A DNA stretch of 64,000 nucleotides from Minisyncoccota bacterium (GCA_041666225.1 JBAYHJ010000001.1:1881-65880); one strand, 5' to 3'; counted from the first letter of the stretch, positions 3,857 to 51,990 are shown. Notes: generated by a model not told the origin, from the letters alone. A program made the numbers and translations.

Positions 3857-3931
3857 ATTGTATAAATATAAATAAGCTCTTTTGAGCTCGTGGAATTCAT
3901 GTTAACAAATATAAGATAGAGAGTCAAGTGT

Positions 3932-4342
3932 TTACAAAAACACTACTATTTTCGGCAAAAAGATTATTATCCCTATAACACCAGCCACTATTACAGATAT
4001 TAGAACTGCTCCTGCAGCTACGTCTTTTGTGTCTTTTGCATAGGGGTGAAAAGTAGGAGAAGTTAAGTCAATATCAATCTCAAAAGCGGTATTTAGTGCT
4101 TCAGCAATAATGACTAGACCTATCGAGAAAATTATCATTACCCATTCAATATTTGATATTTTCAAAATAAAACCTAAATAAATAGCCAATATCGCAAAAA
4201 ATATATGAGCCCAGGAGTTGTGAGTAGACCGAATAAAAATACCCAATCCTCGCCATGCATTTCTTGTGCTTTTCAATCTAGCCACAATTGAAAATCTTTT
4301 CTTCTCTGATATTTTTTTATCCATTTTCCTATTATACATCAA
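3932..4342 (-). CDS. dgkA: diacylglycerol/undecaprenol kinase (DgkA family) membrane protein
   Basis: 136 aa, 3 TM helices, DgkA motifs RNAWRGL...HNSWAH and AEALNTAFEIDIDL. Confidence 0.7.
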   Translation of the reverse strand: MMYNRKMDKKISEKKRFSIVARLKSTRNAWRGLGIFIRSTHNSWAHIFFAILAIYLGFILKISNIEWVMIIFSIGLVIIAEALNTAFEIDIDLTSPTFHPYAKDTKDVAAGAVLISVIVAGVIGIIIFLPKIVVFL

Positions 4343-4384: not shown

Positions 4385-5131
4385 TTAAGTTATTCTTTTT
4401 TTTCTAGCTGGTGTAAGACGATTAACTGTCCACACGATTAAACTTGCTATAATAATTCCAGCCGATCCGAAATAAAAAAAGAAAATGGAGGAAGGGATTA
4501 TTAAATAAAAGAACACAAACAACAAAGCAATAATCATTCCCCCTGATATTCGCCGGGCAATTTTCTCTATGTCGTCAAAAGAAAGAATTAAACAAGCATT
4601 TACAATTGGAATAGCAAGTATTATCCAACAAAATGTCACCAATGTTATATTTTCTTTTGGCGATCCAAAATATAACCACACTAATTCTATTACAGACAAT
4701 ACAATTAACATCGCTGCCAAAACAAGACTCCGCGTTGAATTGTTTTTAACAACAAACCCCCAATAAAGAAATATAATAAACAACACTACCCCAGCCATTG
4801 ATGAATCTCCCATTGAAGAAGAAATATCCTTAGCGAACTGAGTACTTACTGGTACATTTTTGTGAAGTTTTTCATTGTATAACAGCCCGGCGCCTTGTAC
4901 AGAATCTATCTTTAAATTGCCTTTATAATGAATAGATTCTTTGTGGAATAAAATGGTAAGCCCATTTTTGTAAGCTAGATCATTCTGTTCCGGAGTTGCG
5001 TCTTTGTAGGCAACTGAATCTGGAGTAATCGATTTATAACTCGATCCCTCCGATGAGGAAGACGTATTGTTTTTGAAGTATAAAAATACTCCCAAAGACA
5101 ATATCAGGGTAATTAAAAAAAGATTTTTCAT
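4385..5131 (-). CDS. membrane protein, signal peptide/N-terminal anchor plus C-terminal multi-TM domain
   Basis: 248 aa, hydrophobic N-terminus and 4-5 predicted TM segments. Confidence 0.55.
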   Translation of the reverse strand: MKNLFLITLILSLGVFLYFKNNTSSSSEGSSYKSITPDSVAYKDATPEQNDLAYKNGLTILFHKESIHYKGNLKIDSVQGAGLLYNEKLHKNVPVSTQFAKDISSSMGDSSMAGVVLFIIFLYWGFVVKNNSTRSLVLAAMLIVLSVIELVWLYFGSPKENITLVTFCWIILAIPIVNACLILSFDDIEKIARRISGGMIIALLFVFFYLIIPSSIFFFYFGSAGIIIASLIVWTVNRLTPARKKRIT

Positions 5132-5781: not shown

Positions 5782-5819
5782 AATTAAAAGTCGTTCTGGA
5801 AACAGAACGACTTTTTAGT

Positions 5820-6548
5820 TTACCGAAGCCTTGCTTCGGTAGGTTCTATTTCTTCTATCTCTAACCATTCAAATATTTCTTTCTTGAAAATATTTGGGTC
5901 CTCAAAATAATCAGGGAATTTCTCTTTATTTAAAATCAAATTTTCTGGTCTTTTAGATAAAAGATAATCATTATAACTACTCCATTTGTATGAATTAAGA
6001 AAATTAATAGCTTCTGTTTTATTATTTATCCCTACTTCCTTCCAGTCAGATTGAATCAATTTAATAGGATTTAAGTGTATATATGAAAATAAATATTTTG
6101 CTTGTATTTCATCTTCAATATGAATAGATTTAAATTTACCTTCAAATAAAGACCCTGTTCTGTTATGTTTTTTATTAAAATATTTTGCATATGCGGTACA
6201 GAGTTTTCCCATAAATTCAGTTATATTATTCCTCTCTTCATCTTTCCCATTAGACCTACCGAAGCCTTGCTTCGGTAAAGCTATTAAATACAAGTGGAAA
6301 TGGTTGGGCATCAGTACCCATGCACCAATAGCTACTAACTGGTCCCCCCTTTCAAAATCCCAAGCACTTATTTTGGGTTGAATGATATCATCTTTAAAAT
6401 TAATTCCTTTGGTTGAATTACAAAGAAATAAAAGCTTGATAAAGCGATCTCTATCTTCATCATCAAGAAAGATTATTTGTTTATTGTTTCCTCTATTGTA
6501 AATATGATAATATTCACCATCCACAAGTGGAACTTTTCTTAAAGACAT
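5820..6548 (-). CDS. REP-associated tyrosine transposase (RAYT, IS200/IS605 TnpA-like HuH-Y1), copy 1
   Basis: 242 aa; N-terminal YHIYNRGNNKQIIF, HuH motif LMPNHFHLYL, C-terminal WSSY...Y motif; flanked and interrupted by REP1 palindromes. Confidence 0.8.
   Translation of the reverse strand: MSLRKVPLVDGEYYHIYNRGNNKQIIFLDDEDRDRFIKLLFLCNSTKGINFKDDIIQPKISAWDFERGDQLVAIGAWVLMPNHFHLYLIALPKQGFGRSNGKDEERNNITEFMGKLCTAYAKYFNKKHNRTGSLFEGKFKSIHIEDEIQAKYLFSYIHLNPIKLIQSDWKEVGINNKTEAINFLNSYKWSSYNDYLLSKRPENLILNKEKFPDYFEDPNIFKKEIFEWLEIEEIEPTEARLR
5821..5841. repeat. REP1 palindrome taccgaagccttgcttcggta (copy a)
   Basis: perfect 8-bp arms; copies at 6256..6276, 6573..6593, 24612..24632. Confidence 0.8.
6256..6276. 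repeat. REP1 palindrome (copy b), located in-frame inside the RAYT-1 ORF (translates LPKQGFGRS)
   Basis: sequence identity to other REP1 copies. Confidence 0.8.
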
Positions 6549-6572
6549 ATATTACATTATACTACAAAGGTT

Positions 6573-6593
6573 TACCGAAGCAAGGCTTCGGTG
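6573..6593. repeat. REP1 palindrome (copy c, loop inverted: taccgaagcaaggcttcggtg)
   Basis: sequence. Confidence 0.75.
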
Positions 6594-6641
6594 GATATCT
6601 CGTTTCCCATGATTTTTTATTAAGTTAATTTTAATACCTTA

Positions 6642-6671
6642 ATAATACCCCCCCCCGAAAAATGAAGTCAG
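6642..6671 (-). promoter_or_regulatory. putative sigma70-like promoter with 9-nt poly-G in spacer (minus strand: ctgact-N18 incl. G9-tattat) upstream of RAYT-1
   Basis: C9 tract at 6648..6656 on plus strand; same architecture at 7748..7777, 23865..23895, 25464..25494. Confidence 0.45.
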
Positions 6672-6677
6672 CACATC

Positions 6678-6703
6678 AAAAAATACCCTTGCGGGTATTT
6701 TTT
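6678..6703. terminator. hairpin terminator aaaaaataccc-ttgc-gggtatttttt (duplicate of the rplB terminator at 7825..7851)
   Basis: sequence. Confidence 0.65.
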
Positions 6704-6760
6704 GATGATAGATTTTATATTTTTTTCTAAAATTATTTTGCTTTTCCAACTTTTCGGCGG

Positions 6761-6893
6761 GAGACAATCCACATGTTTGAGTATTTCTTTGGTGTTCTTG
6801 TCTTCTGTCCTTTTCCTGTTGGTTTACCCCACATACTTTTGGCTCGGCGTAGTCCGCGTCCTTGGCGTCCTTCACCTCCGCCGTGGAAACTCG
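6761..6893 (-). pseudogene. duplicated 3' fragment of rplB (encodes ...GGGEGRQGRGLRRAKSMWGKPTGKGQKTRTPKKYSNMWIVSRRK), no start codon
   Basis: near-identical to 7984..8116 of the intact rplB; the overlapping ORF-track entry 6639..6944 is in a different frame and judged spurious. Confidence 0.75.
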
Positions 6894-19024: not shown

Positions 19025-19798
19025 TTATTCTAATGTAGTCCCTGATAAATTATCAATATTAAACGATTCAATCCAGTCGGAAATTTGTTTATACTGTTTA
19101 TCTTCATCTCCAAATAATTCAATCAAAAAATCTTTTTTAATTATCGAGGGAAAATTTTTCTTTCCAATATAATCAAGCAAACTACTCCACCTATAATTCA
19201 AAAGGAATTCTAAAGCTTTTTCAGGGTCAGAAATCTTGCCGTTTCGCCATTCTTTAAATTCAAAGTCGAGTGGATTTAAATGAATATATATAGGGAGGTA
19301 CATAAAGTGTGCATCATTTTCTATGTGAATTGATTTAAATTTGCCCTGGAAAAGCGCTCCGTTTCTTTTGTACTTTTGATTAAAATAATTCGTATAACCA
19401 GTTCCAAGCTTTCTCATAAAATTCGTAATTCCATTTTCTTCTTTTTGTCTAATGAGCATATGAAAATGATTGTCCATCAAACAATAAGCCAAAATCTCCA
19501 CAATCGGCTCTTTCCTCTTGTTTTTTATAATTGTTGGAAGTCCGACTTCCAACAATTTGCTTTGACTTTGGTGACGAGAGATTAAATTATTAATATTAAT
19601 TGAAGGATTTTTATCATTAAATTCATACATATCATGAATAAATCTAAAATTATCTCTTTCATTAATAAAAATATTCCTTTTATCTACCCCTCTGTTGTAA
19701 ATATGATAAATCTCATTTGTGGCAAATTTTGATTTTCTAATTGACATATAACTATTATAACAAATTAAATAAATTGTTGGAAGTCGGACTTCCAACAA
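19025..19798 (-). CDS. REP-associated tyrosine transposase (RAYT), copy 2; probable true start MSIRKSKF at ~19744
   Basis: IYHIYNRGVDKRNIF, HuH CLMDNHFHMLI, C-terminal YRWSSLLDY; REP2 palindrome in-frame at 19529..19557 (LEVGLPTI) and another at the 5' end. Confidence 0.75.
   Translation of the reverse strand: MLEVRLPTIYLICYNSYMSIRKSKFATNEIYHIYNRGVDKRNIFINERDNFRFIHDMYEFNDKNPSININNLISRHQSQSKLLEVGLPTIIKNKRKEPIVEILAYCLMDNHFHMLIRQKEENGITNFMRKLGTGYTNYFNQKYKRNGALFQGKFKSIHIENDAHFMYLPIYIHLNPLDFEFKEWRNGKISDPEKALEFLLNYRWSSLLDYIGKKNFPSIIKKDFLIELFGDEDKQYKQISDWIESFNIDNLSGTTLE
19529..19557. repeat. REP2 palindrome inside RAYT-2 coding sequence
   Basis: aattgttggaagtccgacttccaacaatt. Confidence 0.8.
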
Positions 19799-21281: not shown

Positions 21282-23300
21282 ATGCATATGAATCCATTTA
21301 TTATTTTTGCTCTTGTTTCTTCAGTTATCGCAATATTATATGGTTTACTTTTAATCAAAGTTGTTCTTAAAAAAGGTACTGGTGATGCTAAAATGCAAGC
21401 TATTGCAAAAGCAATCCAAGAAGGTGCAAGTGCATATTTAAATCGCCAATACAAAACTATTGGAATTATCGCGATCGTTCTATTCTTAATAATCGGTCTA
21501 GTGCCAATGCTCGGCTGGATGATGGCAATCAGTTTTATTTTTGGAGCTATTTTATCAGCAGTTGCAGGATACATCGGCATGAACGTTTCCGTTCGTGCAA
21601 ATGTCCGCACCACAGAAGAAGCAAAGAAAGGTTTGAAGGAAGCTCTGTCACTTGCTTTCAAAGGCGGAACAGTTACAGGACTTTTGGTTGTTGGTTTAGC
21701 CTTGCTTGGAGTTACTGTTTTCTACATGATTACCGGGGATGTGAAGTCTCTTATTGGTTTATCATTCGGAGCAAGTTTGATTTCAGTTTTCGCTCGACTA
21801 GGCGGTGGAATATTTACAAAAGCTGCGGACGTCGGTGCTGACCTTGTCGGCAAAGTTGAGGCTGGAATTCCAGAAGATGATCCTCGTAATCCTGCTGTTA
21901 TCGCTGATAATGTTGGAGACAATGTTGGAGACTGTGCTGGTATGGCCGCTGACTTATTTGAAACATATGCTGTGACTTCTGTTGCAACAATGCTTCTAGG
22001 CTCTCTCATGTTTGCTGGTTTTGGAAATGCAATTATCTACCCGCTCGCTATTGGTGGAGTTGCAATAATTTCTTCAATCATCGGTACATGGTTTGTAACA
22101 CTTGGAAAAAATAAAAATATCATGGGTGCTTTGTACAAAGGATTAATCGCTGCAGGAATTCTTTCTGCTATTAGTTTCTACCCTATTACAAAATGGCTTA
22201 TGGCTGACAATGGACTCTACTCAGTTGGAGCATTATATGTAAGTGCTTTAGTTGGTATATTTGTTACAGCTTTAATAATAGTTATAACAGAGTACTACAC
22301 TTCAACAGCTTACAATCCTGTGAAATCAATTGCGCAAGCAAGTCTCTCAGGTCACGGTACAAACGTGATTCAAGGACTTGCTGTTTCGATGAAATCTACT
22401 GCTTTCCCATTACTTACAATCGTGGCTGGTATTTTAGTCTCTTATCATTTTGCTGGTTTGTATGGAATAGCAATCGCAGCGATGTCCATGCTTTCTCTTA
22501 CCGGAATCATCGTCGCTATCGATTCATTTGGCCCTATCACTGACAATGCTGGTGGTATTGCTGAGATGGCAGGACTTCCAGATTCTGTCCGCGCAGTTAC
22601 TGACCCACTAGATGCTGTTGGAAATACAACAAAGGCGGTGACAAAAGGTTACGCTATCGGTTCAGCTGGACTTGCAGCTCTTGTACTCTTTGCTTCATAC
22701 ACACAAGAATTTGCAAACCTAGGACATTCTCTAACTTTTGATTTAAGTAATCCTAAAGTTATCGCAGGTCTACTTATAGGAGGATTACTTCCTTACTACT
22801 TCAGTGCTCTATGTATGGAAGCCGTAGGGAAAGCTGCCGGAAAAGTTGTTGAAGAAGTTCGCCGACAATTCAGAGAAATTAAAGGTATCATGGACGGAAC
22901 AGGTAAACCTGATTACGCTACTTGTGTAGATATCGTTACAACTGGTGCTCTTAAACAAATGATTCTTCCAGCTGTTATTGCCGTTCTCTCTCCAATCCTA
23001 GTTGGATTTATTTTAGGCCCTGAAGCTCTTGGTGGTTTACTTGTCGGTTCAATCATCACAGGGATATTCCTCGCAATCTCAATGACTTCCGGTGGTGGAG
23101 CATGGGACAATGCTAAGAAATATATTGAACTTGGAAACTTTGGTGGTAAAGGTAGTGACGCTCACAAGGCAGCCGTCACAGGAGATACTGTCGGAGACCC
23201 CTATAAAGACACAGCCGGCCCAGCCATCAACCCAATGATTAAAATCCTAAATATCATTGCTTTGATTCTGGTTCCAATTCTCGTTTCCTTTTGGTTTTAA
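21282..23300 (+). CDS. hppA: membrane-bound H+/Na+-translocating pyrophosphatase
   Basis: 672 aa; multi-TM; motifs [62 protein letters not shown]. Confidence 0.92.
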
Positions 23301-23329
23301 TTAATTTAAAAATTAATTAAATAGATAAT

Positions 23330-23380
23330 AAAAAATCCCCCGCCAACATCTTATGAAGTTGTGGCGGGGGATTTTTTAAT
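23330..23380. terminator. hairpin aaaaaatcccccgcc...ggcgggggatttttt after hppA
   Basis: sequence. Confidence 0.7.
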
Positions 23381-23400
23381 TTACTTTTCTATTCTAATAA

Positions 23401-23802
23401 TTAACCTTTCTTATTCATAAATTTATATACTATATCAATTTGTTCTCTTAACTTTTTACCTTCTTCTGGATTCATTATTTCAGCTGCTCTCACAAAAATT
23501 TCCATATTCTTATATTGAGATATCCACTCCCTATTATTCAAGAGATGATCCTTCACGGATCCAGGTTGTCCTGAGCCGGCTTTTCCTTCTAATATTTCTT
23601 TGGAATTATAAAACAACTTTGTTTTATAACTATTAAAATTACGTTCATAAAGTCTTGAATCTTTTTTATAAACCTCAATCATATTTAAGGTTTCTTTTTC
23701 TGCATTATCCATTATTTCTAAATACGCAGGACTAACATCATTACTCTCCTCTTTTTTACTATCACCCTCATTGTTATTTTGAACTTTATCAAATTGTCCC
23801 AT
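23401..23802 (-). CDS. hypothetical acidic protein
   Basis: 133 aa; immediately downstream of poly-G promoter 23865..23895. Confidence 0.5.
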   Translation of the reverse strand: MGQFDKVQNNNEGDSKKEESNDVSPAYLEIMDNAEKETLNMIEVYKKDSRLYERNFNSYKTKLFYNSKEILEGKAGSGQPGSVKDHLLNNREWISQYKNMEIFVRAAEIMNPEEGKKLREQIDIVYKFMNKKG

Positions 23803-23864
23803 AAATTTTATATTTTAATCCGCCTCAGCAGATAAGTTAATAATGCAAACTTTCTAATACCCTC

Positions 23865-23895
23865 ATTCTACCCCCCCCCTCATATGAGGTGTCAA
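23865..23895 (-). promoter_or_regulatory. putative poly-G spacer promoter (minus strand ttgaca-N19 incl. G9-tagaat)
   Basis: C9 at 23871..23879; ~90-nt block 23803..23895 is ~90% identical to 25402..25494. Confidence 0.5.
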
Positions 23896-23979
23896 GGAAA
23901 ATGTAATGCTTGACAATAATATAGCAATTTTGCTATATTAGTAATAAGTGGTATTTTATGTTGTGATATAATAATATTA

Positions 23980-24285
23980 ATGAATAAATTCAAGGTATTA
24001 TTTATAAATGAAGTTAGAAATTTTATTAATTCGCTTCCAGATGAAGATAAAGGTAAAATCAACTGTGATTCAAATGCTATGGAATTAGGTAATTTTGATT
24101 CCTTATACATCAAAACACTTAGTACTCCTATCAAGGAATTAATTATTAAAAAATACAGACTAATCTTTTTTATAAATAAAAATGAAATCTGGTTTATAGG
24201 AGCATTTATAAAGAAAACTTCCAAAACTCCAAAAAATGAAATAGAAAATGCTAAAAAGTTATACAAAGAAATTATTAATTTATAA
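23980..24285 (+). CDS. HigB/Gp49-like (RelE/ParE superfamily) toxin
   Basis: 101 aa; C-terminal IWFIGAFIKKTSKTPKNEIENAKKLYKEI typical of Gp49/HigB family; plus-strand promoter ttgaca-N18-tatatt at 23914-23943. Confidence 0.6.
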   Translation: MNKFKVLFINEVRNFINSLPDEDKGKINCDSNAMELGNFDSLYIKTLSTPIKELIIKKYRLIFFINKNEIWFIGAFIKKTSKTPKNEIENAKKLYKEIINL

Positions 24286-24295
24286 CAAAAAATAT

Positions 24296-24601
24296 ATGAA
24301 AACAATTAAAACAAAAAATGGTAAAACTTTAAAGTTTTATACTGCAGATGAAGTATTTAAAAAAGATTCAAAATCTAAAGTTTTTGTTGAGGCTTATAAC
24401 GAAGAACTTATTCGGTTAAATCTCGTAGGTGAAATTAAAAAGTTACGACTTGCAAAAAAATATACTCAGAAAGACCTCGCCCAAAAAGCACAAATGCCTC
24501 AATCTGTAATAGCCCGAATAGAGAGTGGAGAACATAGTTTCTCTCTTGGTACTCTTAGCCGTATCGCAAAAGTATTCAAAAAAGAAATACAATTAGTCTA
24601 A
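24296..24601 (+). CDS. XRE-family HTH antitoxin (HigA-like)
   Basis: [33 protein letters not shown]; overlaps/abuts toxin gene. Confidence 0.6.
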
Positions 24602-24611
24602 AATAAAATTC

Positions 24612-24632
24612 CACCGAAGCAAGGCTTCGGTA
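24612..24632. repeat. REP1 palindrome (copy d) abutting the hppA 3' fragment
   Basis: caccgaagcaaggcttcggta. Confidence 0.8.
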
Positions 24633-24635
24633 AAT

Positions 24636-24737
24636 TACAAAGATACCGCAGGACCCGCAATCAATCCAATGATTAAAATATTAAATATCATTGCTCTCAT
24701 TATCGTTCCGATCTTGGTTGCAATTTGGTTTAAATAA
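24636..24737 (+). pseudogene. orphan diverged copy of hppA 3' end (encodes [33 protein letters not shown])
   Basis: ~78% nt identity to 23193..23300, differences mostly synonymous; followed by hairpin terminator 24758..24796. Confidence 0.75.
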
Positions 24738-24757
24738 AATCTAATCGAATTATCAAC

Positions 24758-24796
24758 ATTAAAAAATCCCTCACTCGAGGGATTTTTTAATGTGGG
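24758..24796. terminator. hairpin aaaaaatccctcactcgagggatttttt
   Basis: sequence. Confidence 0.65.
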
Positions 24797-24798
24797 TT

Positions 24799-25401
24799 TT
24801 ATTTTTCCCCATGGGGAAGTTCTTCAATTGCCTGAGGTCCATCCCAAGCAAAATGCAGATATTTATTTTCTATTTTTTCTTTTAGGGCAAAAGATAAATA
24901 CAAGTTAAACCCTTTTTTGACTGAATCTTGTTCAATTCTTTCTTCTCTATTTTGAATAGAAGTAGAAATATTTTCTGGCCTCTGATTTTGACTCAAATTA
25001 TAAAGAACTGCCTTATCTACATCAGCAACAAAATTAATTTTTTCTAGTTCTTCTTTACTCAACTGATTAACGAATTCTTTAACTATTTTTGGATCTTTTA
25101 TAATTAGAGATTGATATCGACCTCCATTTTTTACATCATTTTCCCAACTTTTATCTTCTTTGTTTACAGGAAATTCTTCTAGAAAAAGATTTTTAAGACT
25201 TTCGACTTTTTCATCTGGAACATAAGAAACTTCTCTGTCTATAAAATCTGCATCTTCATCATTACCGTGATAATCCACAGGTAAAAACCAAGTGTATTTA
25301 TAATTTTCAATTAAATCACTAACCACTTTTCTTATTTTTTGTTTTTCGACAGTATTTTCATCTTTTTTTACTGCTTCGTTTTTATTTAATCCTTCATTCA
25401 T
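24799..25401 (-). CDS. hypothetical acidic protein
   Basis: 200 aa; preceded by poly-G promoter 25464..25494. Confidence 0.5.
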   Translation of the reverse strand: MNEGLNKNEAVKKDENTVEKQKIRKVVSDLIENYKYTWFLPVDYHGNDEDADFIDREVSYVPDEKVESLKNLFLEEFPVNKEDKSWENDVKNGGRYQSLIIKDPKIVKEFVNQLSKEELEKINFVADVDKAVLYNLSQNQRPENISTSIQNREERIEQDSVKKGFNLYLSFALKEKIENKYLHFAWDGPQAIEELPHGEK

Positions 25402-25463
25402 AAATTTTATATTTTAATCTGCCTCAACAGATAGTTAATAATGCAAACTTTTCTAATACCCTC

Positions 25464-25494
25464 ATTCTACCCCCCCCCTCATATAACCTGTCAA
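25464..25494 (-). promoter_or_regulatory. putative poly-G spacer promoter (ttgaca-N19 incl. G9-tagaat), paralog of 23865..23895
   Basis: C9 at 25470..25478. Confidence 0.5.
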
Positions 25495-25574
25495 TACAAC
25501 CCCTTAAAACCATATTTACTTTTAACCCAGCGTGCGCTATAGCGTAATATGAGTTAGGATGATATAATCTAATT

Positions 25575-26057
25575 ATGTCTATAAAGAATGAAATACTGGA
25601 AATATTAAAAACCCCTAAATTCTATTATAAAGGTATTCCTATGAATGCTTTTTTCCTCCCAGCTTTTCAAAATTATAAAAAACAATCAATTAGAAATAAA
25701 TTTTCCTCACTATATGATGATGGGTATTTGGATAAAAAGAATGGGCATTATTTTCTAAATAAAAAAGGGAAAGAATTTTTAGAAAAATCACCTAAATTAC
25801 AATTAAAAATATTCGAGCCAATAAAAAATAATGGTCCAAAAAATTTACTTTTACTTTATGACATTCCCGAGAGTATGAAAAAGGAACGTGATTGGTTTCG
25901 TAGGACATTAATCAAATTTAGTTTCATTATGATTCAAAGGAGTGTCTGGGTTGGTCCATCTCCTCTTCCTAAAGAATTCTTAGATTATGTAAAATCAATT
26001 GGTTTAAAAAATTCAATTAAAACATTCAAATTAGAAAAGGGATTGGTGAATAATTGA
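25575..26057 (+). CDS. hypothetical protein with C-terminal Cas2/PaaX_C-like segment
   Basis: 160 aa; LLLLYDIPESMKKERDWFRRTLIKFSFIMIQRSVWVG resembles Cas2 / PaaX C-domain pattern; -10 gatataat at 25552-25559; 36-nt palindrome terminator 26062..26097. Confidence 0.45.
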   Translation: MSIKNEILEILKTPKFYYKGIPMNAFFLPAFQNYKKQSIRNKFSSLYDDGYLDKKNGHYFLNKKGKEFLEKSPKLQLKIFEPIKNNGPKNLLLLYDIPESMKKERDWFRRTLIKFSFIMIQRSVWVGPSPLPKEFLDYVKSIGLKNSIKTFKLEKGLVNN

Positions 26058-26161
26058 TTTTAACTCACTATGCGCGATAGCATACAGTGAGTTAAAATCA
26101 ATTTAGTGATAATTATTTAAGGTTTGAAAATATATTAATTTTAGTATAAGATGTAAAAACT

Positions 26162-27247
26162 ATGCAAACAACAATTAAAAAATTAGATAAAAGTGAGTTA
26201 GAAATCATCGGTACTATCGAAGCCGTCGAGTTTGAAAAATATGAAGCGAAAGCTCTAGAGAAAGCTGGTGAAAGGCTTGAACTTCCTGGGTTTCGAAAAG
26301 GAAAAGCTCCTGTGGCAATGATCAAAGAAAATATCCCAGAAATGGAATTACTCGAAGAGATGGCGGAGATTGCAATGATGGATAATTACATGAAAATCTT
26401 AGAAGAAAATAAAATCGATGCAATCGGTCGCCCACAGATTGCAATTACAAAAATTGGCAAAGGTTCTGATTTGGAATTTAAAATTATCACTGCAGTTCTT
26501 CCAGAAGTAAAACTCCCTGATTATAAAAAAATATCAAAAGAACAGTGTTCAAAAGAAGATTTTAAAAAAGAAATTAACATTGAGGAATCTGAAGTTGAAA
26601 AAACAATTCTTGAACTTCGAAAAATGAGAGCCGAACAAGCCAAAGGTACAAGTCATGAGGGGCATGAACATATGACAGAGGAAGAACATACAAAAATTCA
26701 CGCGGAGGTTAAAGAAATTCCTGAGAGTGAATACCCAGCATTTGATGATGAGTTTGCAAAAAGCTTTGGTGATTTTAAAAATGCGGATGAACTTCGTGAA
26801 AAAATAAAAAATAATTTAAAAATTGAAAAACAAACTGAGTTAAAAGACAAACTTCGTTTAGCAATAGTTGAAGACCTAGTGAAACAAACTGAAGTTGAGA
26901 TTCCTGAGATTTTAACTCAAAGTGAAACTGACAAAATCATGTATCGCCTTCAAGCAGATATAACCAATGTTGGTTTTAAAATGGAAGATTATTTAAAACA
27001 AATAGGAAAAACTGAGGAAGATCTACGAAGTGAGTGGAAACCCGAAGCAGAGAAACGTGCAAAACTACAAATGATAATCCACACCATTTCAGAAAAAGAA
27101 AATCTCGCCCCAACAGAAGAAGAAATAGAAAAAGATGTTACACAAATTACAACTATGTACAAAGATGCTGACCCAAATCGCGCCCGAGCTTACGTGGAAC
27201 AAATGCTTGAAAATGAAAAAGTGTTTAAGTTTCTTGAAACACAATAA
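26162..27247 (+). CDS. tig: trigger factor (short form, apparently lacking PPIase domain)
   Basis: 361 aa; N-terminal ribosome-binding signature GFRKGKAP. Confidence 0.8.
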   Translation: MQTTIKKLDKSELEIIGTIEAVEFEKYEAKALEKAGERLELPGFRKGKAPVAMIKENIPEMELLEEMAEIAMMDNYMKILEENKIDAIGRPQIAITKIGKGSDLEFKIITAVLPEVKLPDYKKISKEQCSKEDFKKEINIEESEVEKTILELRKMRAEQAKGTSHEGHEHMTEEEHTKIHAEVKEIPESEYPAFDDEFAKSFGDFKNADELREKIKNNLKIEKQTELKDKLRLAIVEDLVKQTEVEIPEILTQSETDKIMYRLQADITNVGFKMEDYLKQIGKTEEDLRSEWKPEAEKRAKLQMIIHTISEKENLAPTEEEIEKDVTQITTMYKDADPNRARAYVEQMLENEKVFKFLETQ

Positions 27248-27264
27248 TTTGATATAATAACCTT

Positions 27265-27855
27265 ATGTTAATCCCAACAGTTATAGAAAAATCACAATTT
27301 GGCGAAAGAGCGTATGACATATACTCACGTCTTTTGAACGAAAGAATTATATTCCTTGGTGGTCCAATCGATGACCATGTGGCCAATTTGGTTATTGCCC
27401 AACTTCTTTATTTAGATCACACGGATTCCAAAAAAGATGTCTATCTTTATATAAATTCTCCTGGTGGTTCAGTCACCGCTGGCCTTGCTATCATCGATAC
27501 GATGAATTTTATTAAGAGTGACGTCTCTACCATCTGCGTCGGTATCGCTGCTTCGATGGGAGCGTTGATTCTTTCTTCTGGTAAAAAGGGTAAAAGATTT
27601 TCATTACCGAATTCAGAAGTAATGATTCATCAAGTGATGGGCGGTACTGAAGGCCAAGCATCGGACATTGCGATCAACGCAAAGCACATCCTCCGCACCA
27701 AAGATACTCTCAATAAAATTCTTGCCCAAAATACTAACAAAAAAATAGACCAAGTAGAAAAAGATTCTGACCGTGACTACTGGATGACTTCTGATGAAGC
27801 CAAGAAGTACGGTATCATAGACGACATTATTTCAAAACCAAAATCCGGAAAATAA
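27265..27855 (+). CDS. clpP: ATP-dependent Clp protease proteolytic subunit
   Basis: 196 aa; catalytic region [19 protein letters not shown]. Confidence 0.95.
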
Positions 27856-27877
27856 CATCAAAACTAGCTCTGAAAGC

Positions 27878-27912
27878 CGGTCATAAGCGTTGCTTATGAC
27901 CGGCTTTTTATT
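27878..27912. terminator. hairpin aagccggtcataagc-gttg-cttatgaccggctt + T-run
   Basis: sequence; clpX does not follow. Confidence 0.7.
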
Positions 27913-28042
27913 TAACTTTCTATTTGTTGCATTATTTGTTGCAAATTAACTTTTCAGTGCAAGGAAAATAAAAAAGGATTTTTACTAACAAAATACTAAT
28001 CTATTTGCTTTTAAAAGAGCAATTTGTTATTATCTGTATTAT

Positions 28043-29158
28043 ATGATAATATATCAACGCAAAATAGAATCCAAAATTAAATCTTTAATATTTAAAAACA
28101 AAATGATTGCTATCCTAGGGCCTAGGCAATCTGGTAAAACTACCTTATCTAAAAAATTAGTAAGTCAATATGGAAAAGATGGAGAGTATTTTGATTGTCA
28201 GATAAATGAAGTAAGAGAGTATTTTAAGGTTGGTGAACCCAAGACTCTATTGAAACTTATAAAAGATAAAAAAATTGTTGTATTTGATGAAGCTCAAACA
28301 ATTCAAGATATTGGTACAATTCTAAAAGTATTTCATGATACATATCCAGAAATACAAATAATAGCTACGGGTTCATCTTCTTTTGATTTAGCAAATAAAA
28401 TAAATGAACCTATGACAGGGAGAGTCTTTGAATTTATATTAATGCCTCTATCTATTGAAGAAATCAAATTATCAAAAAAAATAACAAGGGAAGATTTGAT
28501 GGATTATTTTCTATTAGGAACATACCCCGCTGTAGTAGCGGCAGAATCTAGAGAAGAAAAAGAAATTATTCTTAAAAATATTTCTACAAATTATTTATAC
28601 AAAGATATATTTGTATTTGAAGCAATAAGAAATCCTCAAATTTTTGAAAACTTGGTTAAATTACTTGCAATGCAAGTCGGACAAATGGTTTCTGTCCGAG
28701 AATTGTCATTAAATTTAGGTATTAGTCGTTCTGTAATACAAAAATATCTTAGATTATTAGAACAGTCCTTTATTATTAAAATAGTACATTCTTTCTCTCA
28801 GAATTCACGAAATGAATTAAAGAAAGCATTTAAAGTCTACTTTCTTGATAATGGAGTTCGCAATTCGCTTGTTGATATAAAAAGGCAAATGGAAGGGAGA
28901 ATTGATAAGGGATTTATATTTGAAAATTTCTTTATCTCTGACAGACTAAAACAGGGAACACTAGAAACATTCCCGCCTGAAATTATGTTCTGGCGGACTA
29001 GAACAGGATTAGAAATAGATGTAATTGAAAAATCAGGACTAGATATTTATGCTTATGAGTGTAAATGGACTCAAATAAATATTTCATTTAAAGAATTTCT
29101 CAAATTATATCCCGAAGCAAAAACTGAAATAATCACACCAGATTATTTCCTAAAATAA
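28043..29158 (+). CDS. AAA+ ATPase, AAA_14/DUF4143 family (COG1373-like)
   Basis: 371 aa; Walker A GPRQSGKTTL, Walker B VVFDEAQ, IIATGSSSFDL. Confidence 0.8.
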   Translation: MIIYQRKIESKIKSLIFKNKMIAILGPRQSGKTTLSKKLVSQYGKDGEYFDCQINEVREYFKVGEPKTLLKLIKDKKIVVFDEAQTIQDIGTILKVFHDTYPEIQIIATGSSSFDLANKINEPMTGRVFEFILMPLSIEEIKLSKKITREDLMDYFLLGTYPAVVAAESREEKEIILKNISTNYLYKDIFVFEAIRNPQIFENLVKLLAMQVGQMVSVRELSLNLGISRSVIQKYLRLLEQSFIIKIVHSFSQNSRNELKKAFKVYFLDNGVRNSLVDIKRQMEGRIDKGFIFENFFISDRLKQGTLETFPPEIMFWRTRTGLEIDVIEKSGLDIYAYECKWTQINISFKEFLKLYPEAKTEIITPDYFLK

Positions 29159-29174
29159 TATACAAGCTGAGCAC

Positions 29175-29209
29175 AAAAAACCGACGAGACAAGACCTAGT
29201 CGGTTTTTT
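29175..29209. terminator. hairpin aaaaaaccgacgagacaagacctagtcggtttttt
   Basis: sequence. Confidence 0.65.
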
Positions 29210-29210
29210 C

Positions 29211-29366
29211 TTACCACCATAATTCTGTCGGTTAATGATTAATTAATCGCAACTCCATCATCTTGTATAAAATTTTGGAGCGAGGAGAGAGATTCATAAA
29301 TTAATTACAGTATAATTAATTTACCGCGATGTCTTCAAATATTAGCCGACAAAATTATGGTGGTAA
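29211..29366. repeat. ~156-bp element bounded by 26-bp inverted repeats (ttaccaccataattctgtcggttaat / attagccgacaaaattatggtggtaa)
   Basis: 24/26 complementarity; AT-rich interior with attaattaat repeats; MITE-like or structured RNA. Confidence 0.55.
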
Positions 29367-29590: not shown

Positions 29591-30715
29591 ATGATAATAA
29601 AAAGATGGCTAAAATCAAAAATAATAGAATCATTAAAGGACAATCGTATTACGATAATATATGGGGCTAGGCAGGTCGGCAAAACAACACTAGTAAAACA
29701 AATTACTGAAGAATTTAATGGTAAATATTTACTTTGTGAAGAACCCGATGTAAACGAAGCTTTAACAAAGAAAACTTCTACGGAAATGAAATTTTTCTTT
29801 GGAGATCATAAGCTAATTATTTTAGATGAAGCTCAGTCAATAGAAAATATTGGTTTATCTCTAAAAATAATTCATGACACCTACCCAGATATAAAAATAA
29901 TAGCCACAGGATCAAGTTCTTTTGATCTTATGAGTAAAATTTCTGAACCATTAACAGGTAGAAATATCCCATTTATGCTTTACCCTATCTCCTATCAAGA
30001 ATATTCCGAATCGATTGGACACATAGAGTCTAAGCGTCTTTTAAAAGAAAGAATCCTTTACGGTATGTACCCCCACATTATCAACTCAAATGATATTAAA
30101 CGAGACCTGAAAATACTTAGTTCAGACTATCTATTAAGAGATGTTCTAAGGATAGATCAAGTTCGTAAACCAATTATTTTAGAAAAATTAGTAAAGTTAC
30201 TTGCCCTACAATCAGGATCAGAAGTTTCATTCCAAGAAATTGCTCAAAAACTTGAAGTGAGCAGGGGCTTAGTGATGGATTATGTACGACTACTTGAACA
30301 AGCTTTTATTATCTTTCGCTTACCACCACTTGCAAAAAATCCTCGCGATGAAATAACTCGTTTTGAAAAAGTATTTTTCTATGATACTGGTATTCGTAAT
30401 GCATTAATAGACACATTTACAACACTTGAAAATAGGCAAGATAGTGGACAGCTATTTGAAAATTTTTTCATTAGTGAAAGAATGAAACAATATCAAAGAT
30501 TTGAAAATGAACCAAAACCTCACTTTTGGAGAACAAAAAACCAAAGCGAAATAGATCTTGTAGAAGAATATCACGACAAATTAGATGCTTTTGAATGCAA
30601 AATAAATTCTAAAAAATCTATAAAAACTCGTGCTTGGAATAATTCCTACCCAAACTATAAAGTTAAATCTGTATCGCTTGATACAATCTTTGAAATAATT
30701 ACTACTGATAAATAA
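29591..30715 (+). CDS. AAA+ ATPase, AAA_14/DUF4143 family, paralog
   Basis: 374 aa; GARQVGKTTL, ILDEAQ, IIATGSSSFDL; downstream motifs cttccctatgaa(c/t)ccacaaat and tttgtgaactcaataag repeated at 29457-29520 and 30740-30830. Confidence 0.8.
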   Translation: MIIKRWLKSKIIESLKDNRITIIYGARQVGKTTLVKQITEEFNGKYLLCEEPDVNEALTKKTSTEMKFFFGDHKLIILDEAQSIENIGLSLKIIHDTYPDIKIIATGSSSFDLMSKISEPLTGRNIPFMLYPISYQEYSESIGHIESKRLLKERILYGMYPHIINSNDIKRDLKILSSDYLLRDVLRIDQVRKPIILEKLVKLLALQSGSEVSFQEIAQKLEVSRGLVMDYVRLLEQAFIIFRLPPLAKNPRDEITRFEKVFFYDTGIRNALIDTFTTLENRQDSGQLFENFFISERMKQYQRFENEPKPHFWRTKNQSEIDLVEEYHDKLDAFECKINSKKSIKTRAWNNSYPNYKVKSVSLDTIFEIITTDK

Positions 30716-51060: not shown

Positions 51061-51990
51061 TTACTTACTATGAAACTTTTTATGAACATCTCGAAGTTGT
51101 TTATCTGTTATATGTGTATATATCTGGGTTGTAGCAATGTTGGCATGACCAAGCATCATTTGGACAGAACGAATATCCGCCCCGTTTGAAAGTAAGTCTG
51201 TCGCAAATGAGTGGCGAATGATATGTGGAGTTACTTTTTTTGATATTCCAGCCACGATTGCATAGTATTTTACAATGCGTTCTATCGAACGGGGAGTTAG
51301 CCTATTTCCTTTCGCTCCATTTTGAGAATATTGGATAAATAAAGGCTCATCCATATCTTTACGAATTTTTAAATATTCTCGAATTGCATCTTTAGCAGAA
51401 TCAGATAAAAATACTACTCGCACCTTTTCCCCCTTACCACGAATAGAAAATTCATCTTTTGATAAATCTAGATCACGATTAATAGAGCAAAGCTCAGAAA
51501 GACGAAGCCCCGTTGAAAAAAATAGCTCCAAAATAGCCTTATCTCGCAACATTTTCCCCAGCCCTAAGTCGGACTTAGGGCTGTTAAGAGGGGCATTTAA
51601 AAGTCGATTTAATTCATCTGTTGATATTAAGTCGAGAGAACGCTCTTTTATTTTAGCTAAGTCTATACGTTCAGGAGAAAGGGAAGTAATACCCCTTTTC
51701 ATCAAGTATTTAAGAAATGAACGAAGAGCAATAAGATGATAATTCTGAGTATTTTTCTTGAGAGTTCCGGCTTGTTGACCTTTTGTTTTAGCACCAGGCT
51801 GACGATTGAGATATAATCTAAACTCTCGAATTTTGTCATCTGTTATTTCTTTCGGTTCGGAAATTTTAGCAAAAGTGAAAAAACGAGTTAAATAGTGGTC
51901 GTAATTATTGACCGTTTTTAGACTGTTTCCTTTCTCAATTTCTACATGTTCAAGGAATTCTCTTTTTAATTGTTCGAATTCTGTGGTCAT
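51061..51990 (-). CDS. xerD: tyrosine site-specific recombinase (XerC/XerD-type)
   Basis: 309 aa; catalytic RHSFATDLLSNGADIRSVQMMLGHANIATTQIYTHI. Confidence 0.85.
   Translation of the reverse strand: MTTEFEQLKREFLEHVEIEKGNSLKTVNNYDHYLTRFFTFAKISEPKEITDDKIREFRLYLNRQPGAKTKGQQAGTLKKNTQNYHLIALRSFLKYLMKRGITSLSPERIDLAKIKERSLDLISTDELNRLLNAPLNSPKSDLGLGKMLRDKAILELFFSTGLRLSELCSINRDLDLSKDEFSIRGKGEKVRVVFLSDSAKDAIREYLKIRKDMDEPLFIQYSQNGAKGNRLTPRSIERIVKYYAIVAGISKKVTPHIIRHSFATDLLSNGADIRSVQMMLGHANIATTQIYTHITDKQLRDVHKKFHSK

Follow-up and report, generated by a model that had tools for sequence, protein, structure and literature searches.

The DNA analyzed here is a 64,000-nucleotide stretch (the window) from a genome of Candidatus Paceibacterota, Nomurabacteria-like judging by the naming of the closest relatives of its hppA gene. 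Between hppA, which encodes a membrane-bound Na+/H+ pyrophosphatase, and tig, which encodes trigger factor, the window carries a second copy of the last 33 hppA codons that belongs to no gene. We found that this orphan tail is foreign in origin and comes from a different hppA allele, and that the hppA-tig gap is a hypervariable recombination hot spot of reusable modules. The locus is a real scar of horizontal exchange, of a known kind with good precedents. An earlier note on this DNA, made from the sequence alone, had attributed the duplication to a mobile element that integrates into the hppA 3' end and carries a replacement end. The region is better read as two stacked alternative versions of one locus than as a self-contained integrating element. 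It provides direct sequence evidence that reduced-genome, uncultured Paceibacteria of the Candidate Phyla Radiation (CPR) trade small accessory modules by recombination, across a divergence of about 20% between lineages and at one defined hot spot beside an essential gene, and it is a compact natural record of an exchange that added a module where replacement is usual.

The orphan hppA tail and its junction

The intact hppA gene (21288..23300, plus strand) encodes 670 amino acids counted from MNPF and matches PF03030 with 907 bits. Its product is 100% identical to P0001, a protein from a metagenome-assembled genome at NCBI, and 96-97% identical to P0002-P0006 (P numbers denote proteins and L numbers loci). 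The last 33 codons and the stop form repeat copy A ("endA", 23202..23304, plus strand), a member of direct repeat D1. The second copy of these 33 codons, the orphan 3' fragment ("endB": 33 codons, Lys and stop), sits 1434 bp downstream of the first at 24636..24737, also on the plus strand. When 23202-23304 was aligned without gaps to 24636-24738, 80 of 103 bases were shared (78% identity) and the longest identical runs were 14 nt; both this value and the translation agree with the earlier note, which had the segment re-encoding the last 33 hppA codons at about 78% nucleotide identity. Protein-level similarity to hppA, which the note had proposed as a check, is present, as the orphan tail alone matches the last 23 positions of Pfam H_PPase (623-645, E 4e-6). 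In the frame of the orphan, a stop at 24594-24596 is followed by no ATG, GTG or TTG before 24636; therefore the copy is an untranslatable pseudogene fragment. It has no function of its own.

Copy A and the orphan show 14 synonymous codon differences and 3 non-synonymous ones, and the stop of the former is replaced by Lys in the latter. The Nei-Gojobori method gave proportions of synonymous and non-synonymous differences (pS and pN) of 0.70 and 0.074, corresponding to a ratio of non-synonymous to synonymous substitution rates (dN/dS) of about 0.04, and so few non-synonymous changes would arise under neutrality with a chance of 4e-6. Therefore, the two tails diverged while each was part of a working gene in a separate lineage. 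The orphan peptide is identical to the natural C-terminus of P0073, another Paceibacteria hppA product, whose gene is 88% identical to the hppA of the window, whereas the C-terminal peptide of copy A agrees with the closest relatives. The near-purely synonymous divergence and the identity with the P0073 C-terminus confirm two claims made earlier, that the substitutions are mostly synonymous and that the copy came from a different allele.

For comparison with other genomes, hppA loci were collected from species-representative genomes, from contigs encoding the closest hppA proteins, and from a metagenome scan with an IUPAC DNA pattern for an 11-residue coding stretch of the hppA tail. The survey is a sample, and the counts taken from it refer to the matches listed. 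Among the 138 alleles listed, those nearest to the orphan tail were 86-89% identical in nucleotides, and no donor allele closer than 89% was found among them.

The junction itself was present in a second assembly (ENA ERZ27249449 k141_72059, locus L092). This 35-kb contig begins inside hppA and is 100% identical to the window over 21941-29285, junction included.

The last feature before the orphan is the REP1 hairpin (24610..24634), named after the repetitive extragenic palindromic (REP) type of sequence. Its core at 24613-24631 is a 19-nt palindrome, ACCGAAGC-AAG-GCTTCGGT, which occurs four times in the window against zero expected. The hairpin folds with a free energy (dG) of -9.2 and a z score of -5.9, and it scores as a terminator on the minus strand. 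The earlier note had described a REP1 palindrome that abuts the fragment; the call was correct, and the core ends 4 nt before the fragment. On its 3' side, REP1 is followed by AAATTACAAAG at the orphan junction (24632-24642) and by AAACTAAAAAG at another copy, that starting at 5822 (5811-5821, reverse strand). The flank common to copies 24613 and 5822, AAAyTAmAAAG, shares 6 of 7 bases with the hppA sequence TACAAAG at the join. The start of the orphan may thus coincide with part of the REP1 flank in a 6/7 microhomology, TAmAAAG, which would fit a microhomology-mediated join.

The hppA-tig gap in the window and its relatives

The conserved right flank of the hot spot is tig (26162..27247, plus strand), which lies directly behind hppA in relatives. 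Among the matches listed, about 13 lineages have hppA, a terminator and tig within 91-150 bp, and these include L097 and L098 (96-97% relatives) as well as L001, L093 and L094. Because such empty sites exist in close relatives, all of 23301-26161 is accessory. A search for an empty site had been suggested beforehand and was thus successful; the cassette is missing from close relatives, so that the arrangement is not the fixed ancestral feature which, according to the earlier note, would speak against its reading. The GC content of the accessory stretch is 26-29% vs 41% for hppA.

In the window this stretch is a tandem pair of units built to a single design, the second of which opens with the orphan tail. 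Module A is made up of T1, a 133-amino-acid gene, D2, HigBA and REP1. Behind hppA lies spacer A (TAATTAATTTAAAAATTAATTAAATA), which is 27 nt long, AT-rich and near-identical to the spacer of L087, together with the bidirectional terminator hairpin T1 (23329-23378; 23301..23378 with the spacer). T1 is a 17-nt perfect inverted repeat, I11, and in its stem CCCCGCCAAC it is similar to the terminators behind hppA in L097 and L099. The ORFan gene for 133 amino acids (23401..23802, minus strand) is followed by its promoter and leader, D2 copy 1 (23803..23895, minus strand), and by genes for a HigB-like toxin and a HigA-like antitoxin (23980..24285 and 24296..24601, both on the plus strand), with REP1 at the end. 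Module B is made up of T2, a 200-amino-acid gene, D2, a PaaX-like gene and a hairpin. It begins with spacer B and the bidirectional terminator T2 (24738..24793; T2 24756-24793), an inverted repeat, I12, called as a terminator and near-identical to the terminators behind hppA in L087, L145 and L187. A second ORFan gene, for 200 amino acids (24799..25401, minus strand), D2 copy 2 (25402..25494, minus strand) and the PaaX-like gene (25575..26057, plus strand) follow.

Occupied hppA-tig gaps range from 230 to 4261 bp and are extremely diverse. Their 214 open reading frames (ORFs) represent 107 families; beside hppA, the minus-strand gene was nearly always a singleton among the matches listed. What recurs between lineages are the connectors: T2-type terminators, D2, the higBA promoter and the hairpins that flank the PaaX-like gene. 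The order hppA, terminator, ORFan, D2, HigBA, terminator, tig was complete in L135, and L126 and L223, whose contig stops inside higA, carry this layout as far as HigBA. The order hppA, T2, ORFan, D2, PaaX, hairpin, tig was found in L087, L108, L142, L143 and L171. In L119, two stacked modules are joined at identical 42-nt copies of T2 with no hppA fragment, and most module-bearing sites behind hppA in the matches listed are without any orphan. HigBA of the window is 89% identical in nucleotides to that of L223, whereas hppA is only 81% identical for the same pair, and more distant HigBA relatives occupy unrelated loci; therefore, the modules move laterally.

Orphan tails are rare. When tails were compared with downstream DNA in the 138 clade loci listed, only the window strain and L185 had an extra copy, and a check for tails lacking a gene body added L099. 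Among 76 diverse genomes one, L071 (Hyphomicrobiaceae), had an orphan. In total, three Paceibacteria lineages and one Hyphomicrobiaceae genome carry orphans in the matches listed, and their breakpoints vary, lying at codon -33 in the window, -38 and -21 in L185, -49 in L099 and about -27 in L071. No recombinase was found within any of the orphan-bearing cassettes.

These other loci differ in what they hold. In L071, an 80-nt duplication of the hppA tail (90% identity; 2521-2610 and about 3864-3953) brackets a 1.27-kb insert with a BrnT/BrnA-like pair, a 94-amino-acid coiled-coil ORF and no integrase. In L099 (1-1530), a DUF3800-like gene and a possible small RNA (promoter near 318, terminator near 400-430) come before an orphan 49-codon tail, and a native-type terminator and tig follow it directly. 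L185 has tandem 125-nt units at 4748-4997 and 6541-6832, each with a GTAG-tagged 49-nt hairpin (dG -16, z -6.9) and a 21-codon hppA tail. Two such units, composed of nothing else, stand in tandem directly behind the hppA stop; one tail is identical to that of the gene and the next differs from it synonymously. The hairpin always joins at CCAA|TGAT within the codons for NPMIK, and the orphan copy, too, is broken by it at this position. This L185 hairpin element was absent from the window and from the 216 other loci compared.

Origin of the seam and alternative explanations

On balance, and with slightly better than even confidence, we favor a recombination between alternative versions of the locus that was homologous on one side and illegitimate on the other ("C-terminal displacement"). 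A module consists of a bidirectional terminator, a minus-strand lineage-specific ORFan, D2, cargo on the plus strand, either HigBA or the PaaX-like gene, and a hairpin; alternative modules are exchanged at the hppA-tig gap between related lineages of the Paceibacteria clade. Homologous recombination with DNA of a related lineage, which had another version of the locus, would have been confined to one side, either hppA or tig. At the other end, an illegitimate join would have linked the position just behind the REP1 hairpin to a point in an hppA copy 99 nt ahead of its stop. In this way the newcomer would be added beside the resident module, not in its place, and one hppA tail would be left geneless. 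The 99-nt orphan tail is the seam between modules A and B. Clean replacement as the rule, rare retention, variable breakpoints and the lack of an integrase make C-terminal displacement the best explanation. Here we infer the recombination pathway, its direction and any part that the hairpin may play in it.

This explanation has precedents. C-terminal displacement, or homology-facilitated illegitimate recombination, was proposed for orphan arrays at the rhs, contact-dependent inhibition (CDI) and type VI secretion system (T6SS) loci (PMC5361080); as presented there, the process is also credited to Jackson et al. 2009. The hppA locus is like those arrays in having a conserved upstream gene and variable downstream modules with no recombinase. 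Clean homologous replacement is the rule in both, most occupied hppA sites among the matches listed being orphan-free, and in both a retained old module begins with a 3' fragment of another allele of the anchor gene, as in the window, L185 and L099. The hppA locus departs from those arrays in that its anchor is a housekeeping ion pump, where theirs is a toxin gene, its modules hold a toxin-antitoxin pair, a regulator and ORFans in place of toxin tips and immunity genes, and its seam adjoins a REP-type hairpin.

Which of the two tails arrived last can be approached from their relatives. The stop context of the orphan and its spacer resemble those of the Lys-ending lineages L093, L094 and L187. 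In L187, a Lys-type tail is directly followed by a T2 near-identical to that of the window; therefore the orphan, spacer B and T2 are one natural block. L087, the nearest relative by NusA, hppA, tig and ClpP, has a tail and spacer similar to those of the intact gene. The first block is thus hppA, tail A, T1, the 133-amino-acid gene, D2, HigBA and REP1, and the second is tail B, T2, the 200-amino-acid gene, D2, PaaX and tig. As both tails resemble the ends found in relatives, both blocks are natural contiguous arrangements, and the only novel junction is REP1|TACAAAG. The earlier claim of a replacement end therefore fared unevenly: a different allele is indeed involved, whereas the evidence on which hppA end is foreign points both ways, the tail of the intact gene being L087-like and the orphan resembling Lys-ending lineages. 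A model with a circular intermediate and a crossover at AAAAAATCCC was dropped, since L187 shows a Lys-type tail and T2 as a natural block.

The evidence on the direction of the event is mixed. We lean slightly toward module A, with the complete hppA end, as the newcomer, because the geometry of L099 points this way and a linear L135-type donor fragment would suffice. In that direction, module A and the complete hppA end would have arrived, and the resident tail with module B would have been pushed downstream. Sliding nucleotide identity against L087, L081 and L001 revealed no visible breakpoint in hppA; flanking NusA, tig and ClpP all share the same nearest relatives, and no breakpoint is visible there either.

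Several observations weigh against C-terminal displacement or the assignments made under it. hppA is 670 codons long, and every orphan breakpoint lies in its final 50. The clade orphans (window, L185 and L099) each begin 0-5 nt after a hairpin; in L185 this is a CAAG-loop hairpin once, at a unit boundary, and the GTAG-tagged hairpin four times. Such regularity seems greater than random joining of ends would produce. The L185 units resemble a small tail-targeting element with a replacement end. With regard to the two tails, identities over 96 nt to the 138 alleles among the matches listed differ by only a few bases, and GC content at third codon positions (GC3) does not discriminate the resident from the incoming tail.

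The strongest competitor, which we consider unlikely, is a mobile cassette without an integrase, consisting of a replacement tail, cargo and a hairpin, and moved in trans by a hairpin-recognizing enzyme, for example one of the RAYT-like (REP-associated tyrosine transposase) Y1 enzymes of the HUH type that these genomes encode. It amounts to the model of the earlier note, supplied with a mechanism. The cassette would insert at the conserved hppA tail, its own tail would restore the gene, and the old tail would become the orphan. A RAYT-like Y1 gene is indeed present at 5820-6548 on the minus strand, and it is flanked by inverted REP1 copies at 5822-5840 (loop CTT) and 6574-6592 (loop AAG), the whole element spanning 5820..6592; the hairpin before the window orphan thus belongs to a family that flanks a RAYT-like gene in the same genome. 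The window, L087 and L097 share a second Y1 gene, placed two genes upstream of hppA. The immediate precedence of a hairpin in every clade case fits such a cassette, as do the tandem L185 units with their synonymous tail differences and constant CCAA|TGAT join. In L099, the orphan adjoins a native-type terminator and tig, as expected if the insert brought the replacement end. However, breakpoints vary by lineage (-33, -38, -21, -49 and -27 codons) and most occupied sites among the matches listed are orphan-free. The hairpin of the window cassette is at the right end only, whereas elements of the IS200/IS605 type need both ends; REP1 has no GTAG or CGTC tag; matches to its core motif at this position in relatives belong to ordinary terminators; and the L087-like end and spacer of the intact gene are not obviously foreign.

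The known systems closest to this model resemble the locus in part. As in REP/RAYT systems (PMC2817692, PMC3116915, PMC3733652), REP1 is a short intergenic palindromic repeat, and inverted copies flank a single Y1/HUH transposase-like gene. Unlike in those systems, REP1 has only four copies in 64 kb and lacks the GTAG/CGTC tag (the L185 hairpin has GTAG), the RAYT-like proteins of the window are below the family cut-off, and one REP1 copy is in frame inside the gene. The proteins encoded at 5820-6548 and 19025-19798 score 39 and 42 bits against NF047646 (REP_Tyr_transpos), whose cut-off is 80. With PF01797, 19025-19798 passes at 40.5 bits, and 5820-6548 is a weak match that fails at 17.7 bits. 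The internal REP1 copy (6258-6276) encodes LPKQGFGRS. Compared with IS200/IS605-type elements such as palindrome-associated transposable elements (PATE), the window hairpin is at the right end only and the L185 hairpin joins constantly at CCAA|TGAT. Integron cassettes are similar in that small modules, each ending in a hairpin, are stacked in tandem at one site; they differ in that the hppA locus has no IntI nearby, no attC consensus, its own promoters and genes on both strands.

A more specific form of this idea, which we regard as doubtful, is that hairpin-guided cassettes with a REP-type hairpin as the right end and a captured hppA tail as the left end are moved as single strands by a Y1/RAYT enzyme and home to the NPMIK stretch. 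Each insertion would swap the tail and shift the earlier cassette downstream, and the 125-nt unit of L185 would be the smallest member. If the hairpin-guided reading were true, domesticated RAYTs would gain a role in shuffling cassettes, as an integron-like system without an integrase, and only then would the locus represent a new class of element.

We consider it similarly improbable that the cassette is the remnant of a larger integrative element, an island or prophage with attB in the hppA 3' end, whose integrase was deleted while loss of the toxin-antitoxin pair was penalized. Direct repeats of a gene 3' end around foreign DNA are the classic signature of attL and attR. A toxin-antitoxin pair is present at three of the four orphan loci, namely HigBA in two of them (the window and L185) and a BrnT/BrnA-like pair in the third (L071); the 2-kb contig of L099 shows none. 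The hppA tail duplication recurs in a distant phylum. The locus shares with islands such as Salmonella genomic island 1 (SGI1), which integrates at the 3' end of trmE (PMC8409611), the bracketing of foreign DNA by direct repeats of a gene 3' end, an intact gene and an empty site in relatives. It differs from them in having no integrase, diverged repeats without a long identical core, breakpoints that differ between occurrences and an insert of only 1.4 kb. About 200 readable loci among the matches listed, which were not exhaustively typed, had no integrase beside hppA. The repeats are 78% identical with longest shared runs of 14 nt, the breakpoints vary between lineages, and the same modular content is found repeat-free in relatives. 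No nucleotide match was found in phage or plasmid collections, and viral contigs contained no HigB relative and no hppA-tail pattern.

These observations also bear on the element proposed earlier. Domain profile searches of the five ORFs between hppA and tig found no recombinase domain, and none lies in or beside the cassette. The sole tyrosine-recombinase-like ORF of the window is Xer-like and lies 27 kb away (51061-51990), no window-wide profile search for serine recombinases having been made. Breakpoints that differ in four lineages argue against a fixed att site, and most occupied sites carry no orphan; the integrating element of the earlier note is not supported in the form given there.

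Much less probable than any of these is that an assembler fused two strain variants end to end into a chimeric locus. In favor of such an artifact are the strain variability of the region, its frequent contig breaks, with many HigB homologues coming from contigs of 0.5-3 kb, and the repeated nature of REP1. Nevertheless, the junction is identical in the 131-kb NCBI/JGI contig and the 35-kb ENA contig, no repeat of k-mer length is common to both sides of the join, and L185 and L099, which are independent samples, have structures of a comparable kind. Finally, if the hppA end had been duplicated in tandem where it stands and had then diverged, a direct repeat in the same orientation would result, but an untranslated copy would change regardless of codon position, whereas a dN/dS of 0.04 with pS 0.70 and an orphan peptide identical to a natural allele place the divergence inside functional genes, so that this explanation is effectively refuted.

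Genes and promoters of the modules

The earlier note had recognized a Gp49/HigB-like toxin and an XRE antitoxin in the cassette, and both searches run on them agreed. The toxin (101 amino acids, RelE-ParE superfamily) matches PF05973 with E 5e-11 (42.9 bits, cut-off 23.9) and has 38 homologues, some of which are named RelE/ParE family toxin by NCBI. The XRE-HTH antitoxin, also of 101 amino acids, matches PF01381 HTH_3 with E 7e-15 (55.3 bits, cut-off 23); its start codon was picked by homology to the 101-amino-acid partners in L135 and L218. The toxin gene comes first, a 10-nt gap separates the two genes, and a single promoter with a palindromic operator serves the operon. This promoter (TTGACA, 18 nt, TATATT; 23910..23939, plus strand) was the best match of the scan, with 11 of 12 positions, and it overlaps a 20-nt near-palindrome, ATATAGCAATTTTGCTATAT, the presumed HigA operator, which recurs upstream of HigB in L135, L119 and L223. 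The same HigB-HigA pairing was found in at least eight relatives. In domains, gene order, gap and operator the pair appears to be a HigBA type II system by every sequence-level criterion, with no notable difference, and it looks like a working toxin-antitoxin pair that would stabilize the insert. At an unrelated locus, L221, a promoter-like direct repeat of 45-70 nt (91%; 4032-4104 and 5826-5911) brackets a 214-amino-acid gene and a HigBA homologue, a further case of an insertion whose flanking DNA is duplicated.

The 133-amino-acid ORFan protein had no match in Pfam, NCBIfam or PHROG. Its sole homologue, P0122 (67% identity), is encoded beside a Y1 transposase gene at an unrelated locus. An AlphaFold2 model (mean predicted local distance difference test score, pLDDT, 78.5) predicts a helical bundle, for which Foldseek found no match in the PDB. 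The only survey relative of the 200-amino-acid ORFan, among the matches listed, is a 198-amino-acid gene of L126. BLASTP between the 133- and 200-amino-acid proteins gave nothing, and the two are unrelated.

Both ORFan genes are preceded by the same promoter and 5' untranslated region. These are the members of direct repeat D2 (23800-23895 and 25399-25494), whose unit is 93 nt, and copy 1 aligns with its equivalent in L087. D2 is a sigma-70-type promoter with TTGACA, a 19-nt spacer ending in G9, and TAGAAT, followed by a leader; in copy 1 the -35 box lies at 23890-23895, G9 at 23871-23879 and the -10 box at 23865-23870, all on the minus strand, and in copy 2 G9 lies at 25470-25478. The poly-G promoter described in the earlier note is thus real, at 23865-23895. 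Minus-strand tracts of G8-G9 occur at four promoters of this 34% GC genome (6648-6656, 7754-7761, 23871-23879 and 25470-25478), and they fill the 3' part of an 18-19-nt spacer between a TTGACA-like -35 box and the -10 box. The tract varies in relatives, being GAGAGAGGGG in L087, GGATGGAGGGG in L223, G11 in L185, and G8 and G9 in L119. Promoters that switch by slipped-strand mispairing classically have this layout, and the G-tract promoters look phase-variable. The minus-strand ORFans next to hppA differ in nearly every lineage, yet one conserved D2 of about 90 nt drives them all (for example in L087, L135, L119, L126, L185 and L223). The locus therefore links a toxin-antitoxin pair, REP-type hairpins and phase-variable-looking promoters, and it may serve strain typing and questions on the roles of hypervariable ORFans.

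The PaaX-like regulator of module B has a Cas2-like middle domain (PF20803, E 1.5e-13), and its gene is bracketed by hairpins at 25523-25556 and 26052-26103 with the common loop TGCGC(G/T)ATAGC. PaaX/Cas2-like genes are flanked by hairpins in the window and in L081, L087, L119, L142, L148/L184 and L206; across lineages the loop TGCGCGATAGCGTA is conserved, whereas the stems vary in a compensatory manner. Such hairpins could act as an operator or mark the two termini of a small mobile unit.

An Rfam scan of the region and of L185 gave sub-threshold chance matches only. In L087 (9274-9560), a GIY-YIG endonuclease gene directly follows the tig promoter and an ATGAA start stub and lies immediately upstream of the real tig. 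Further along the window, just downstream of clpP, there are two paralogous AAA_14/DUF4143 ATPase genes at 28043-29158 and 29591-30715.

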